Numbered from the whole stretch's first letter, positions 2,164-54,424 are shown. The stretch is 63,992 nucleotides of DNA, filler included, from an uncultured Methanosarcinales archaeon (GCA_964434475.1; 5 parts of 5 records of this genome joined end to end with filler, not necessarily neighbours in it); one strand, 5' to 3'. The notes: generated by a model not told the origin, from the letters alone. Translations and numbers: made by a program.

Positions 2164-3405
2164 ATGGGAAAGATAAGCCCAGTTTCAGCTAAATATATAG
2201 TTCATTCATCTATCAATATTGAAGGCGTAGTTGACAGACCAGATGTAATAGGTGCAATTTTTGGTCAGACAGAAGGTTTGTTAGGTGCTGATCTTGAATT
2301 AAGAGAACTTCAAAGAAGCGGCAGGATAGGAAGGATAGAAGTAAGTTTAGAAACCAAAAGTGGTAAAACAAAAGGAGATATCCTTATTCCTTCGAGTTTA
2401 GACAAAGCAGAAACCGCTATAGTTGGAGCTGCTTTAGAGATAATTCAAAGGATAGGTCCTTGCAACGCTAAGATACAAGTAGAAAAGATAGAAGATGTAA
2501 GGGTAAGTAAAAGAGCCTATGTTGTTGACAGGGCAAAATCATTGCTGAAGAATCTTATGGATTCTGTAATGCCTGACAGCCAAGAGATAGCTGACGAGGT
2601 TGCATATTCAGTAAGGGTTATGGAGATTCAAAATTATGGCAGAGATAGATTGCCGGCAGGACCTTCTATCGATGAAAGCGATGAGATAATAGTAGTAGAG
2701 GGAAGAGCAGATGTTCTTAATTTGTTGAAGCATGGTCTTAAAAACGCTATAGCTATGAACGGTTCTTCTGTACCTCAGACATTGGTTAATTTAAGCAAAC
2801 AAAAGATAGTTACTGTTTTTGTCGATGGAGATAGAGGCGGAGATTTGAATATTAAGGAATTACTGCAGGTTTCTGATATAGATTATGTTACAAAAGCGCC
2901 TGATGGAAAAGAGGTTGAAGAGATAACCAAAAAAGAGATACATAAGGCATTAAGAGGAAGGGTTGCTGCAGAGCAGGCAAAATTAGAAATAGGCAATACT
3001 GAAGAAAGGGTAGAAAGAAGAAAACATACATCGCCTAACCACTCATACCAAAGACATAATTCTAGGCAGTCTCAACAATCACAAAGATCTTCGTCTTCTT
3101 CAAGACCTGTTGTTTTGAGTGCAGAAAAAAAAGAAAAATTCAAGTCTATGTTAGAGGATCTTGTAGGAACAAAAGGTGCTTATCTGCTCGATGAAAAAAT
3201 GAATATACTTGGGAAAGTTCCTTACAGCGAACTTGCGACAACTATAAAAAGTCTAAAGACCGGAATATATGCTGTTATTTTTGACGGACAGATAAATAAA
3301 GATTTGCTACAGACAGCAGAATATACAAGAGTAAAACATCTGATAGGTATGGATTCAAACGTAAGGTCTAGCAGATTGAACATAATGACTATCAATGATT
3401 TTTAA
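2164..3405 (+). CDS. dnaG: Archaeal DnaG (bacterial-type primase fold, exosome-associated)
   Basis: N-terminal GVVDRPDVIGAIFGQTEGLLG; TOPRIM motifs VVEGRADV and DGDRGG; strong RBS. Confidence 0.96.
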   Translation: MGKISPVSAKYIVHSSINIEGVVDRPDVIGAIFGQTEGLLGADLELRELQRSGRIGRIEVSLETKSGKTKGDILIPSSLDKAETAIVGAALEIIQRIGPCNAKIQVEKIEDVRVSKRAYVVDRAKSLLKNLMDSVMPDSQEIADEVAYSVRVMEIQNYGRDRLPAGPSIDESDEIIVVEGRADVLNLLKHGLKNAIAMNGSSVPQTLVNLSKQKIVTVFVDGDRGGDLNIKELLQVSDIDYVTKAPDGKEVEEITKKEIHKALRGRVAAEQAKLEIGNTEERVERRKHTSPNHSYQRHNSRQSQQSQRSSSSSRPVVLSAEKKEKFKSMLEDLVGTKGAYLLDEKMNILGKVPYSELATTIKSLKTGIYAVIFDGQINKDLLQTAEYTRVKHLIGMDSNVRSSRLNIMTINDF

Positions 3406-3411
3406 AATTTT

Positions 3412-4490
3412 TTATTTTTTTAAGAATTTTTTTCTTGCTTCTTTCAACAGTTTTGGCTCAGGCAATCCTTGTGCTTTTGAATACCTTAATCTTGTGCCTT
3501 TTGAATAAGGGCTTGTCATATAACATCTTAAAAACCAATCTTTGACTTCTTCATTTATCTCAAGCCCTTCTTTTTGTAATTGCCTTACAACATCTATCCT
3601 CGCCAGATCGCGCTTATAGGAGCAGCCTGCATTGACTGGATACTTTAGTATGTAATCAATAGTCTCTTTTTCGCTTAAATCGATTAATCTGCCTATCTTG
3701 TTCTTTTGCTTCAGAACTCTTGAATGGTTGTAGCTACCAAATTGAGGAAAGTTTAATATTGCTTTCTTTACAGCAGCTTCATTGCCATATATTTTCACAG
3801 CTTCTTCCATTACTCTTGAATGGTTTAAGTTAGCAAATTNNNNNNNNNNNNNNNNNNNNNNNNNNNNNNNNNNNNNNNNNNNNNNNNNNNNNNNNNNNNN
3901 NNNNNNNNNNNNNNNNNNNNNNNNNNNNNNNNNNNNNNNAATATTGCTTTTTTAACATCCTTTTCATTACCATATATTTTCACAGCTTCTTCCATTACTC
4001 TTGAATGGTTTAAGTTAGCAAATTGAGGAAAGTTTAATATTGCTTTTTTAACATCCTTTTCATTACCATATATTTTCACAGCTTCTTCCAGAACTCTTGA
4101 ATGGTTGTAGCCAGCAAATTGAGGATTTCTTAATATTGCTTTCTTTACAGCAATTTCATTGCTATATATTTTCACAGCTTCTTCCAGAACTCTTGAATGG
4201 TTTAAGCCAGCAAATTGAGGAAAGTTTAATATTGCTTTCTTTACAGCAACTTCATTGCCATATATTTTTACAGCTTCTTCCATTACTCTTGAATGGTTTA
4301 AGCCAGCAAATGTAGGAAAGTTTAATATTGCTTTCTTTACAGCAACTTCATTGCCATATATTTTTACAGCTTCTTCCATTACTCTTGAATGGTTTAAGCC
4401 AGCAAATGTAGGAAAGTTTAATATTGCTTTTTTAACTAATTCTGTATCTCCATATACTTCAATAATTTGCTCAAGCTTTTTAGGTTTCAT
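3412..4490 (-). CDS. 32-aa tandem-repeat helical protein (mTERF-like); one gene interrupted by a 100-N gap
   Basis: ORFs 3825-4490 and 3412-3810 carry the same repeat (xEEAVKIYGNExxVKKAILNFPxFAxxNHSRV). The repeat continues on both sides of the gap, and the C-terminal cap is a degenerate repeat. Confidence 0.8.
3715..4460. repeat. 96-bp tandem repeat array (at least 7 units; true number unresolved by the gap)
   Basis: ACTCTTGAATGGTT recurs every 96 bp (for example ~3997, 4093, 4189, 4285, 4381). Confidence 0.92.
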
Positions 4491-4577
4491 ACACTCAATA
4501 GTGATTAAATACTTATAAAACTAATGCTCAAACTACAAAATAACATTAGAAATTATATATAAAAGAAAAAAAAGAAT

Positions 4578-5798
4578 CTAGCACAGTGCCAGTTCCATAA
4601 GCTCTTCTACTGTTTTGTATCCAGGATACATCTCACCATTAATCTCCCACGTAGGATAACCTTTAACATCTTCTTTGCAGTCTGTTGAGTCGCAGTATAC
4701 TAACTCAACATCAACATTGTCAAGCAGTTCAATCTGTTCATCGCAGTATTTGCAGTTATTTTTCACGATGTAAAGTTTAGCATTGTTATCTTTAAGACAG
4801 TCATTAAAAGTGTATTCTGATTCAACTGTTTCAACAACTTTTTCACCAAGATATATCTTGATGGTTGACTTGCTTTTAAGCTGCTCTATATATGTCTCTA
4901 AACCAGTTTGCTTTTTTGTTCCTAATAAAGATTCTCTTATTTGAGATTCAACGTCCGGCAGCTTTATCTCATTATTATCTCTTTTGATTATATGCCATCC
5001 GTATTGTGTCTGTACGGGCTCCGAAATCTCTCCTTGATCTAATGTGAAAAGCACATTCTCAAATTCTTCGACAAGCATGCCTTTGCCTACAACGCCTAAA
5101 TTTCCTCCGCTAGTGCTGCTAGGGCCTATTGATCTTTCTTTTGCAAGTTCAGCAAAATCCTTTCCGCTTAGTAATTCTTGTTTTATCACTTTTGCTTCTT
5201 CTTCTGTCTCAACAAGTATGTGTCTTGCTCTTACTTGTCCTTTTTGAATCAGGAATTGTTCAATATTATTGTCATAATATTCTTTTATCTCTTCATTGCT
5301 TATGGTTATCTCTTTGAACAGTGTTTCATTTATGAAATCATTTATGATTATCTGTTTTCTATAGCTATTTCTAAGCTCTTCATATGTTAATCCCTGCATC
5401 TTAAGCGATTCTTGAAGCTGCTCTTGAGTCATGCTTGTATCTTCAATAGCTTTATCAACAGCATCCTGCACTTTTTTATCATCTACTGTTTTGTCTGTTA
5501 TCTGCTGCATGATAAGCATTTCATTTATCATCTGATCCAGTAAATCATCTTTTGTTATCAAAGATTGATAAGTTTCTGGTAATATGCTGTATTTTTTATC
5601 CAATTCCTGCATTGTTATGTATTCATTATTAACCTGAGCAGCCATGCTTTCTTTTTTTTGCACAGCATTGCCAAGATTTGTTTTGACAGAATCAACATAA
5701 TTCATTATATCTGCTTTGTAAAAGTATACTAGAACCAATAAGATAATAAAAATAAGTCCGAAAATCCTTCCTTTTCTTAATTTAACTTTTTTTGCCAA
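4578..5798 (-). CDS. Membrane-anchored PrsA/SurA-type parvulin PPIase with C-terminal thioredoxin-like domain
   Basis: N-terminal TM helix; SurA-N-like AAQVNNEYIT; parvulin motifs ARHILV, FAELAKERS, GGNLG, QYGWHII; C-terminal CKYC...GYPTWEING. Confidence 0.88.
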   Translation of the reverse strand: MAKKVKLRKGRIFGLIFIILLVLVYFYKADIMNYVDSVKTNLGNAVQKKESMAAQVNNEYITMQELDKKYSILPETYQSLITKDDLLDQMINEMLIMQQITDKTVDDKKVQDAVDKAIEDTSMTQEQLQESLKMQGLTYEELRNSYRKQIIINDFINETLFKEITISNEEIKEYYDNNIEQFLIQKGQVRARHILVETEEEAKVIKQELLSGKDFAELAKERSIGPSSTSGGNLGVVGKGMLVEEFENVLFTLDQGEISEPVQTQYGWHIIKRDNNEIKLPDVESQIRESLLGTKKQTGLETYIEQLKSKSTIKIYLGEKVVETVESEYTFNDCLKDNNAKLYIVKNNCKYCDEQIELLDNVDVELVYCDSTDCKEDVKGYPTWEINGEMYPGYKTVEELMELALC

Positions 5799-5929: not shown

Positions 5930-7258
5930 ATGGCATATGACATAATAGTTGGCAGGAATGAGGCTGATAGAAAAAAATATGGTATGAAAGGCACAATCCT
6001 TATAGGTAAGCATTATGTTAAGATGGGTCAGTTAACTACTCTTTCCAATAAGGTATATATGGACATAGCAAAAGCACACGTTGTGTTTATATGCGGAAAA
6101 AGAGGCGGCGGTAAAAGTTATACTATGGGAGTAATAGCAGAAGGTATGTTGGATCTGCCGCCTGAAGTAAAAGAAAACTTGAGTATAATTATGCTTGATA
6201 CTATGGGTGTTTATTGGACCATGAAATACCCTAATCATAAGGATGAGGAACTGCTGAAAGATTGGGGTTTGGAAGGCAAAGAGCTGAATATAACAATTTA
6301 TACTCCTGTGGGTTATTACAAACAGTATAAAAAACAGGGTATTCCTACTGATTTTCCTTTCTCTATAAAACCTAATGACCTTGATGTTGACGATTGGCTT
6401 CTTACTTTTGATCTTGACATGAATGATCCTATAGGTGTTTTGATACAGAAAACATTGCATAGTTTGAGAAAGGAGAAACCAGAATTTTCAATAGAGGATT
6501 TTATAGAATTCGTAGGGAAAGATAATGATGCCGATTCTCATTCAAAAGAAGCGTTAATAAGCAGGCTTAAAGGCACAGAAGATTGGGGATTGTTTGAAGC
6601 AAAAGGTACTGCAATAAAAGATCTCGCTTTGCCTGGAGCTGTAGTGGTGCTTGATGTTAGCTGCTATGCTACCATGCCTGGAGGCTGGAAAGTAAAAAGT
6701 CTTGTTATTGGTATAGTCTCAAAAAAATTGTTTATAGATAGGATGAGATCAAGAAAAATGGAAGAATTTCGGGCTATCAGCGGAGCTGAGCATTATTTTG
6801 AGACTTCAAAACCTGTTAAAAAAGAAGAGAAGATGCCGCTTGTATGGCTTGTAATAGATGAAGCACATGAATTTCTGCCTATTAAGGGTAAGACGTCATC
6901 AACAGATGCTTTAGTGACTATAATGAGGGAAGGAAGGCAGCCGGGCATTAGCCTTATATTGGCAACTCAGCAGCCAGGAAAGATACACACAGATGTGATG
7001 ACACAATCAGATATAGTTTTGGCTCATAGGATAACAGCAAAGTTAGATACTGAAGCTTTGGGTCTATTGATGCAGAGTTATATGCGTAAAGGTTTAACAG
7101 AACAATTGGATAATTTGCCCAGGGTAAAAGGGGCAGCAATACTGTTTGATGATCAGAATGAAAGGATGTATCCTATAAGGATCAGGCCCAGATTCACATG
7201 GCACGGAGGCGAAGCTCCTATTGCTGTTCCGCCTGAGAAAAAGGAGATAGATCTTTAA
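5930..7258 (+). CDS. HerA/FtsK-superfamily ATPase (DUF87-type)
   Basis: Walker A GKRGGGKS, Walker B VIDEAH, REGRQPGISLILATQQP. Confidence 0.88.
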   Translation: MAYDIIVGRNEADRKKYGMKGTILIGKHYVKMGQLTTLSNKVYMDIAKAHVVFICGKRGGGKSYTMGVIAEGMLDLPPEVKENLSIIMLDTMGVYWTMKYPNHKDEELLKDWGLEGKELNITIYTPVGYYKQYKKQGIPTDFPFSIKPNDLDVDDWLLTFDLDMNDPIGVLIQKTLHSLRKEKPEFSIEDFIEFVGKDNDADSHSKEALISRLKGTEDWGLFEAKGTAIKDLALPGAVVVLDVSCYATMPGGWKVKSLVIGIVSKKLFIDRMRSRKMEEFRAISGAEHYFETSKPVKKEEKMPLVWLVIDEAHEFLPIKGKTSSTDALVTIMREGRQPGISLILATQQPGKIHTDVMTQSDIVLAHRITAKLDTEALGLLMQSYMRKGLTEQLDNLPRVKGAAILFDDQNERMYPIRIRPRFTWHGGEAPIAVPPEKKEIDL

Positions 7259-13521: not shown

Positions 13522-13723
13522 TTAGATTATAATTTCATCAAGTATGTTAATAAATATTTCTATACTGTAGAAAAACTGTACGATTTGAAAATTCTTGCAA
13601 TTTCTATATTTATTAATTTTGCANNNNNNNNNNNNNNNNNNNNNNNNNNNNNNNNNNNNNNNNNNNNTTAATTAATTAANNNNNNNNNNNNNNNNNNNNN
13701 NNNNNNNNNNNNNNNNNNNNNNN

Positions 13724-27047: not shown

Positions 27048-27842
27048 ATTAGGAATGTAGATGTTTGGGTTTTTATATTTATTGTTTTCTATCTTTCAAT
27101 ATTTTTCCTGTTTTGTAATATAATTGCTGATTTCACAGGTAAACGTATTTTCTAATTGTAAAACAATACTTTTTATTTCAGGATACTAGCGAATCTTGTG
27201 TGCATGTGCTGTAGTGAACGAGACTTGTTCTACAGAGCCATTTTTCCGATGATGGGTCTTTGTTCTGGCTTTTTAAAAAATAACAAAAACGCTTCCTATG
27301 GNNNNNNNNNNNNNNNNNNNNNNNNNNNNNNNNNNNNNNNNNNNNTTAATTAATTAANNNNNNNNNNNNNNNNNNNNNNNNNNNNNNNNNNNNNNNNNNN
27401 NTTTATAAACCAACTTGATCAAATAAATTTTGCAGAATTATCGAATTTCACAATTTAATCTCTTTATACAGATAATATTGTTTATCTTTTATCATAATGT
27501 CTAGCTTCTGTTCATCTGTCATTTTTTGCTGTTTGAACATGTTTGAGAAGTCATTATAGCATTATTGTTTATCTTATCTGATTGTTGTTCTATTACTATA
27601 TTTATTATTTTAACCTTGCCTGAGCTTATTTTTATGCGGTTTTGCGCTAGAAACACATTGATAATTTTAAGACAACTATTGCTGATGCTAAAAATTTCAA
27701 AATATCCTCTTTCCTAATTATTATACAAGAAAGTACGTTATTTAAATATTTAGAACATATATCAATGGTAAAACTCTTGTTTTCATCATAAAGTTTTTAT
27801 ATGTGATATTTTATTCTAAATTTAAGATATGTAAGGTGGTAT

Positions 27843-29808: not shown

Positions 29809-29899
29809 CGCCCCTGCGAAGGATTGAACTCCGGTTTCAAGGTCCGCAACCTCGCGTACTTAATGGCGCTGTGTAACGCATCCACTATACTACAGGGGC
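29809..29899 (-). tRNA. tRNA-Arg(GCG) with 19-nt D-loop intron (29861-29879)
   Basis: Acceptor GCCCCTG/CAGGGGC; anticodon arm CGAGG-TTGCGGA-CCTTG; T-arm CGGAG-TTCAATC-CTTCG; BHB-like GTGG/CCAT with ATG and TAA bulges; 72 nt after splicing. Confidence 0.9.
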
Positions 29900-40825: not shown

Positions 40826-40925
40826 NNNNNNNNNNNNNNNNNNNNNNNNNNNNNNNNNNNNNNNNNNNNTTAATTAATTAANNNNNNNNNNNNNNNNNNN
40901 NNNNNNNNNNNNNNNNNNNNNNNNN

Positions 40926-54324: not shown

Positions 54325-54424
54325 NNNNNNNNNNNNNNNNNNNNNNNNNNNNNNNNNNNNNNNNNNNNTTAATTAATTAANNNNNNNNNNNNNNNNNNNN
54401 NNNNNNNNNNNNNNNNNNNNNNNN

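Follow-up and report, generated by a model that had tools for sequence, protein, structure and literature searches.

Near-identical repeat units, few hypervariable positions and a variable number of units are what made the TALE and PPR proteins decodable and engineerable. TALEs are assembled from two-helix repeats of 33–35 aa that carry a hypervariable di-residue at positions 12/13 and read one base per repeat, and the PPR motif is a 35-aa helix-turn-helix. Helical repeat proteins also often bind proteins.

The closest described system to the archaeal gene considered here is the mTERF family (PF02536; human MTERF1–4 and the plant mTERFs), whose members are presented, in the relevant passages, as eukaryotic, nuclear-encoded and organelle-targeted proteins (PMC7826268, PMC12977773) and as eukaryote-specific organellar factors (PMC7826268). 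The passages on their distribution report mTERF proteins in metazoans and plants (PMC3471360) and their absence from bacterial and fungal genomes (PMC12977773). An mTERF unit, in the section that treats its structure, consists of two antiparallel helices followed by a short helix (PMC7826268). In the structural work on MTERF1 the protein has eight 33-residue motifs, with a conserved proline capping each central helix; over the 22 bp of its footprint these prolines line the major groove, and five arginines, R162, R202, R251, R350 and R387, read bases (PMC4705650). The relevant text also states that mTERF proteins can work via protein contacts (PMC7826268). Among the 15 best-ranked of 636 papers in a full-text literature search that included the names of DPANN lineages, none mentioned mTERF, and no description of archaeal mTERF proteins was found.

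Organization of the repeat gene

The gene lies on the minus strand of the window, the whole 63,992-nucleotide stretch of DNA that was analysed, from an uncultured Methanosarcinales archaeon (GCA_964434475.1). Its parts are as follows.

3412..4490, minus strand: whole mTERF-like repeat gene, stop codon included (3412-3414); from the ORF, its translation and family conservation
4476..4490, minus strand: start codon and basic 5-residue N-terminus; from translation
4380..4475, minus strand: unit 1, a divergent N-terminal cap repeat of 32 aa; from translation and unit comparison
3996..4379, minus strand: units 2-5, four complete 96-bp / 32-aa repeats; from Tandem Repeats Finder and the AF2 model
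4284-4379, 4188-4283, 4092-4187 and 3996-4091, minus strand: units 2, 3, 4 and 5 in turn
3940..3995, minus strand: start of unit 6, first 18 codons and 2 nt, cut by the gap; from translation
3840..3939, no strand: 100-N scaffold gap within the array; true length 11 + 96k nt, from the repeat phase
3811..3839, minus strand: last 9 codons and 2 nt of a gap-cut unit; from translation
3715..3810, minus strand: unit 7, the last canonical 32-aa repeat; from translation
3415..3714, minus strand: C-terminal module, 100 aa, net charge +11; from family-wide conservation
4491..4577, minus strand: AT-rich intergenic stretch of 87 bp upstream of the start; from the sequence

Before the gap the coding sequence translates into 183 aa, which cover the divergent unit, the four complete internal ones and the first 18 residues of a sixth; the 141 aa encoded after it start with the 9 residues that end a unit and continue through a complete and a degenerate unit into the C-terminal module. 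Were the gap closed by the minimal 11 nt, the product would number at least 329 aa. The window protein is without the long N-terminal extension seen in many homologues. In its C-terminal module, one or two degenerate mTERF-like motifs are accompanied by a basic tail and by an ordered loop in which S-P-Y is nearly invariant. The gene as called by the source is limited to the 132 aa that follow the gap, and a promoter is presumed, by inference only, to lie within 4491-4577. Short plus-strand ORFs inside the array were rejected as genes, being mirror frames of the repeat. The window's own genome holds a single copy of the family gene, and among the public sequencing runs listed there was no RNA run with the locus.

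Tandem Repeats Finder gives a 96-bp period with 5.2 copies, 92% matches and a score of 749 over 3940-4436. The five internal complete units differ pairwise at 3–16 of 96 nt, the cap unit differs from the others at 21–31 of 96, and the degenerate unit after unit 7 differs from canonical units at 60–68 nt. A preliminary description had counted at least seven near-identical 32-aa units, and the translation bears this out. It had also proposed a recent expansion of the array, which holds for some units only: one pair is 3 nt apart, whereas pS between the window units is 0.14.

The run of 100 N is a placeholder. It is the only N run that sits inside a contig, the others in the window being 44-N contig spacers, and its true length must be 11 + 96k nt because the phase of both flanks has to close (our own arithmetic). 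In Logan unitigs from one public run, which contained 95% of the flank's sampled words, the unit type flanking the gap has 1.8–2.5 times the depth of the single-copy flanks; this agrees with k of 0 or 1, which puts the array at seven or perhaps eight canonical units. No Logan unitig or contig of that run bridges the gap, all of them breaking inside the array. The earlier expectation of more units than are shown is thus narrowed by the unitig depth, which suggests at most about one extra.

Fold and homology to mTERF proteins

AlphaFold2 models of the array and C-terminal pieces (pLDDT 95.0 and 94.7) show each 32-aa unit as a long helix, a central helix and a short helix; in DSSP terms a helix-12/helix-10/helix-5 pattern is repeated 5.7 times in the array model and twice more in the model of the C-terminal piece. 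Position 22 is a proline in every window unit and in 204 of the family's 225 repeats; in the models it directly follows helix B, capping the central helix as in mTERF motifs.

A structural search with VIA-align against 48,161 PDB representatives placed MTERF3 first (3m66, Z 12.6, rmsd 2.9 Å over 180 of 183 residues), followed by DNA-bound MTERF1 (3n6s, Z 11.5, 3.5 Å, 183 residues) and a mitoribosome chain (6z1p_BY, Z 11.2), and then by two algal mitoribosome chains together with MTERF4 at Z 8.6–9.7. BurrH and the TALEs come after these at Z 5.6–8.3 and about 5 Å, and everything else has Z of 4.5 or less. With the C-terminal piece, all seven chains that reach Z of at least 5 are MTERF1/3/4 or mitoribosome chains, MTERF3 3m66 scoring Z 9.9. 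Of the two structural checks that had been proposed at the outset, the AlphaFold fold is mTERF-like, whereas Foldseek against the PDB returned nothing at E ≤ 0.001 (E-values around 1), its low-rmsd rows being MTERF chains.

Sequence comparison places the homology at the level of profiles. The window's own pieces, unlike those of described mTERF proteins, fall below Pfam detection: they have no PF02536 match at E ≤ 1 in a Pfam search, and their genome has none at E ≤ 10. Of 84 family members, 41 match PF02536 at E ≤ 1e-3, the best at 2e-12, and every other Pfam family is matched by at most two of the 84. Among 12 full-length relatives, seven score above the Pfam cut-off of 23.1 bits, and a precomputed PF02536 label is present on three of seven database matches. 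In an hhalign comparison the family profile is in register with a eukaryote-type mTERF protein along 216 columns, at a probability of 93% and E 3.3e-7. In a PDB sequence profile search the Tetrahymena mitoribosome protein 6z1p_BY (E 3.9e-4) is the sole match below 1e-3, with MTERF1 chains at E 0.4–0.9 in the same search. A language-model look-up, used as a lead only, gave eukaryotic mTERF clusters as nearest, with a score of 0.89.

Searches of the window's own pieces against Pfam, NCBIfam and PDB sequences gave only short partial matches, KH_DUF2096_C (38.6 bits; best stretch 19 residues) and KOW1_SPT5 among them, which were rejected because their scores were attributed to one short match recurring in each repeat.

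From these profile alignments and predicted structures we conclude that these DPANN alpha-solenoid proteins form a divergent branch of the mTERF superfamily within the archaea, and the mTERF-like fold and homology proposed earlier are supported by the AlphaFold2 models, the structural matches, the Pfam matches of relatives and hhalign alike. The likenesses to mTERF proteins are tandem motifs of about 30 aa, each with two antiparallel helices plus a short one, a superhelix that superposes on MTERF3 and MTERF1, and a basic protein. Unlike the degenerate units of mTERF proteins, those of the window are nearly identical, and the signature Y8, F24, H29, R31 and V32 together with a conserved C-terminal module is specific to the archaeal family. 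The genes also lie on archaeal (DPANN) chromosomes and are not eukaryotic nuclear genes for organelle proteins; the eukaryotic, organellar setting is thus missing, a difference that concerns distribution, not fold. The best reading places the protein in the cytoplasm.

The TALE and TALE-like proteins (AvrBs3/PthXo1, BurrH/Bat) share with this family near-identical repeats of about 33 aa, few hypervariable positions and a variable number of units, and they are the second-best group of structural matches to the array model. Membership was nevertheless rejected: each unit here has three helices, the fit is poorer (about 5 Å versus 2.9–3.5 Å), there is no TALE sequence match, and the variable sites are not a single 12/13 pair, the main ones standing at 21, 23, 26 and 27, with no indication of a one-unit-one-base geometry. 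The PPR and PUF RNA binders resemble the family in concept, being modular helical repeats whose specificity residues sit at fixed places, and differ from its three-helix units. No PPR or PUF Pfam match was found in the window's pieces or in 84 relatives, on which ground PPR membership was rejected, and no PPR or PUF entry stands among the fold-search matches listed.

Family extent and distribution

Searched against 1.84 billion representative proteins, the C-terminal piece gave 128 matches at E ≤ 1e-3, the window's own piece being one of them, with 96 at ≤ 1e-10 and 20 at ≤ 1e-30; with so many matches in such a database, the gene is not a chance reading frame. One of the 128 is an mTERF protein of eukaryotic type that scores 265 bits against PF02536, and three were set aside as non-family, namely P0105 and P0119 (ankyrin) and P0108 (an unrelated long protein). 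The family comes to about 124 representative clusters, a set that includes P0131 from a separate word-indexed protein search; the word-indexed protein searches returned only 1 and 7 matches. With an HMM of the window's repeat units, 120 of the 124 proteins prove to carry 1 to 6 units, and the overall range of unit number is 1 to 13. Y8, P22, F24, H29, R31 and V32 are nearly invariant in the family's units, and the C-terminal module with its S-P-Y is common to family members, which their sources label 'hypothetical protein'. Among individual relatives, P0033 is unusual in having two copies of the C-terminal module, P0104 has weak N-terminal helix-turn-helix matches (HTH_23 at 22.4 bits, under the cut-off), and P0050 bears the source name of a CopG/Arc/MetJ-type regulator.

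With eight close sequences as query, 24 related loci were found in species-representative genomes, which divide by record title as follows: eight in Woesearchaeota, nine Micrarchaeota-type (one of which is merely a 30-residue fragment), three Nanoarchaeia-type, two in Pacearchaeota, one in Methanosarcinales and one from an 'uncultured archaeon'. The named genome matches are almost all DPANN archaea, and the archaeal origin that had been proposed for the gene is borne out by these homologous loci on DPANN archaeal contigs. Twenty pattern matches on viral contigs included no relatives.

A second mTERF-like subfamily occurs in the same phylum, represented by L032 580-1551 (plus strand) and L033 363-1706 (plus strand). 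Like the window's family it consists of tandem units of about 33 aa, and it scores above the PF02536 cut-off; unlike that family it has a different unit sequence, no motif proline and no shared C-terminal module, and the window-family profile misses it at E ≤ 1e-5. Across the 401 genomes of the phylum, 10 match PF02536 at E ≤ 1e-3, five of them above the cut-off, and the genomes concerned mostly differ from those with the window's family.

The prominence of MTERF3, MTERF4 and mitoribosome-bound chains among the best structural matches, and of a mitoribosome protein as the only PDB profile match below 1e-3, raises the question of whether the protein acts on RNA or in ribosome biogenesis as MTERF3, MTERF4 or mTERF9 do, binding structured RNA such as rRNA with no per-unit code. 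The distribution fits such a role poorly: within the window's own phylum, 401 genomes of 90% completeness or more include just 8 with the family (2%; 8 of 281 genera), which would be odd for a ribosomal function, and the single genome of the same genus that was searched lacks it. The family's range of 1 to 13 units, with variable unit contents, also speaks against a role in ribosome biogenesis, which we regard as improbable.

Positions that vary between units

Within-protein variation was analysed in repeat pairs at least 70% identical, taken from 24 proteins with 225 full repeats; the pairs in these counts are not independent. The most variable positions are listed below.

Position 21: differing fraction 0.69; F/H/Y/N/W; varies in 20 of 24 proteins
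Position 27: differing fraction 0.55; L/Y; varies in 16 of 24 proteins
Position 23: differing fraction 0.50; P/Q/R/S; varies in 14 of 24 proteins
Position 26: differing fraction 0.43; G/S/D/N; varies in 13 of 24 proteins
Position 12: differing fraction 0.41; E/D/K/S/A/Q; varies in 11 of 24 proteins

The differing fraction is 0 at Y8, F24, H29 and V32 across the 24 proteins, and F, P, G and L, which are not typical base readers, are the residues most often found at the variable positions. In the window the five internal complete units vary at positions 1, 9, 12, 13, 20, 21, 23, 25, 26 and 27. The preliminary description had seen a fixed scaffold with variation at the proline turn and at one dipeptide, and positions 12-13 and 20-27 correspond to just these; positions 1 and 9 are two minor additions to that picture. 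These ten positions, expected to hold 31% of the within-protein differences in the 23 other proteins, in fact hold 54%, a share reached by only 109 of 100,000 random sets of positions, so that the variation predicted to concentrate at the same positions in homologues does so over the 24 proteins.

At positions 21/23/26/27 the window's array shows no synonymous change. In nine other genes these positions have pN 0.355, about equal to pS 0.345, with 0.067 and 0.289 elsewhere; taken over the window-defined positions, the pN/pS ratio in other genes is 0.71 versus 0.16. A dN/dS of 1.6–1.7 had been obtained at sites chosen post hoc and was discarded as evidence, since the sites had been picked for being variable; cross-validated counts replaced it.

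A pN that roughly equals pS, as in the other genes, is also what neutral tolerance gives, and the variable positions could then be the least constrained surface sites of a protein that coats or organizes nucleic acid non-specifically. The limited, mostly non-polar alphabet at these sites and the basic C-terminal tail would suit such an architectural protein. The window's own array points the other way, with pN at these four positions (0.383) exceeding pS at the remaining 28 codon positions (0.141, where pN is 0.063), as does the fact that the sites varying most between proteins (5, 6, 11-13 and 30) are a different set, uniform within proteins. The patchy distribution of the family moreover fits a chromatin role poorly, and we judge non-specific coating very unlikely.

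Another genome of the same order encodes a 13-unit paralogue of 547 aa (L034 264-1907, minus strand), in which units are 32 or 34 aa long, whole unit types recur and positions 26-28 co-switch between two types. This co-switching suggests shuffling of a few unit types and not free site-by-site tuning, and with the recurring unit types the arrays therefore look like mosaics of few unit types.

Relation to the DNA contacts of MTERF1

PDB titles name MTERF1 R162A, F243A and Y288A as base-flipping mutants, and HMMER alignment of the repeat to 5crj_O places R162 at position 20, R202 and F243 at position 23, and R251 at R31. The numbering takes chain index 1 of 5crj_O as residue 73, which gives arginine at 162, 202 and 251 and phenylalanine at 243. 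The MTERF1 alignment segments are individually insignificant (-1.5 to 5 bits), and the residue register is trusted only because the prolines and the range of the structural alignment agree: model residues 1-183 align with MTERF1 103-314, and by linear interpolation the model's five prolines fall within a few residues of P129, P164, P201, P242 and P277.

By homology, then, the hypervariable sites would flank the equivalent of the groove-lining proline of MTERF1, and position 23 would correspond to an MTERF1 base contact. The proposed correspondence of variable residues with MTERF1 base contacts is upheld to the extent that, on this alignment and by homology only, they coincide or are adjacent. 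The further proposal that each repeat reads one base is unsupported, because the geometry is MTERF-like, fitting MTERF1/MTERF3 at 2.9–3.5 Å and TALEs at about 5 Å, and MTERF1 covers about 2.75 bp per motif (our own arithmetic, from 22 bp and eight motifs).

Genomic neighbourhood

The window consists of five contigs joined by spacers, at 13624-13723, 27302-27401, 40826-40925 and 54325-54424, each made of two 44-N runs around 12 bases, and gene order across these four joins is for that reason not real. Within the gene's own contig, a Toprim-domain gene (2164-3405, plus strand), which we take to be DnaG-like from its sequence type, adjoins and converges with the mTERF-like gene (3412-4490, minus strand), with 6 bp between the stop codons. 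Upstream on the same strand, the gene at 4578-5798 (minus strand) encodes a SurA-N and parvulin-type PPIase protein with a hydrophobic N-terminus and a Cys-rich C-terminal part, an architecture typical of a bacterial-style periplasmic chaperone that stands here in an archaeal-type genome; the gene ends at 4578 with a terminator-like hairpin (site 4592-4578). A HerA-like ATPase gene (DUF87; window 5930-7258, plus strand) is also close, and in one Woesearchaeota locus a HerA-like homologue (L009 3513-5669, plus strand) lies directly upstream of the family gene; this association is seen in 2 of 25 places and may be mere local synteny. Elsewhere in the window, Rfam identifies a tRNA, possibly an archaeal one with an intron, at 29809-29899 (minus strand; 47.1 bits, 91 nt), although ARAGORN reported none anywhere in the window.

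When the neighbours at the 24 related loci and in the window are clustered, each cluster is confined to three loci at most. A Pfam scan of 53 neighbours in 16 related loci, the closest of 91 neighbour ORFs listed, found unrelated housekeeping genes, among them an Rpb2-type RNA polymerase subunit, ribosomal proteins, ribonucleotide reductase, TruD and an IF-2-type translation GTPase, and no integrase or transposase. The mTERF-like gene is distributed patchily, as a stand-alone gene among housekeeping genes.

This setting bears on whether the solenoid might serve as a protein–protein scaffold or adaptor, its surface binding one or more protein partners and its variable positions tuning the contact. 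Protein binding is often the role of helical repeat proteins, and hydrophobic or aromatic residues are common at the variable positions. Within the mTERF family itself, the passages concerned describe direct protein contacts of mTERF9 and the binding of NSUN4 by MTERF4 (PMC7826268; PDB titles 4fzv and 7o9k). A conserved partner gene is, however, nowhere to be seen among the neighbours described above, the family is basic, and on the alignment above the variable sites match the base-contact positions given for MTERF1 in the text on its DNA contacts (PMC4705650), so that we consider a scaffold role unlikely.

Proposed function and implications

The median pI of the family is 9.78, with 80 of 83 members above 8, versus 8.68 for 37 ORFs of the window; the extra basicity over the window background is modest. 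By analogy with MTERF1, we give about even chances to the reading in which the protein is a sequence-preferring nucleic-acid binder that tracks a groove, with specificity set beside the proline and retargeted by shuffling of units. A ridge of prolines would follow the groove of a target that is most likely double-stranded DNA and possibly structured RNA. Conserved His29 and Arg31, together with the basic C-terminal module, may give general affinity, and the residues that differ from unit to unit (at positions 21, 23, 26, 27 and 12) would set the sequence preference. Gain, loss and shuffling of units could then change the target.

Databases already attach PF02536 automatically to some of the family's 'hypothetical proteins', and an atlas cluster of bacterial proteins carries it as well; the novelty of the present work accordingly lies in recognition and analysis and not in first detection. 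A well-supported mTERF-fold family on archaeal chromosomes widens the eukaryote-specific picture, and its members make simple models, small and soluble, of a fold whose rules of recognition are still little understood. The combination that opened the TALE and PPR proteins to decoding recurs here, with hypervariable positions at sites that correspond by homology to MTERF1's base contacts, and if binding proves specific the code might be readable from natural arrays. A bolder and distinctly doubtful extension is that DPANN archaea possess a reprogrammable nucleic-acid reader built on the mTERF scaffold, in which a few groove-facing residues would form the code and arrays of 1–13 units would be reshuffled for retargeting. 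If that were so, the 'eukaryote-specific' mTERF fold would have a prokaryotic branch, one that may be older than the organellar family or have given rise to it.
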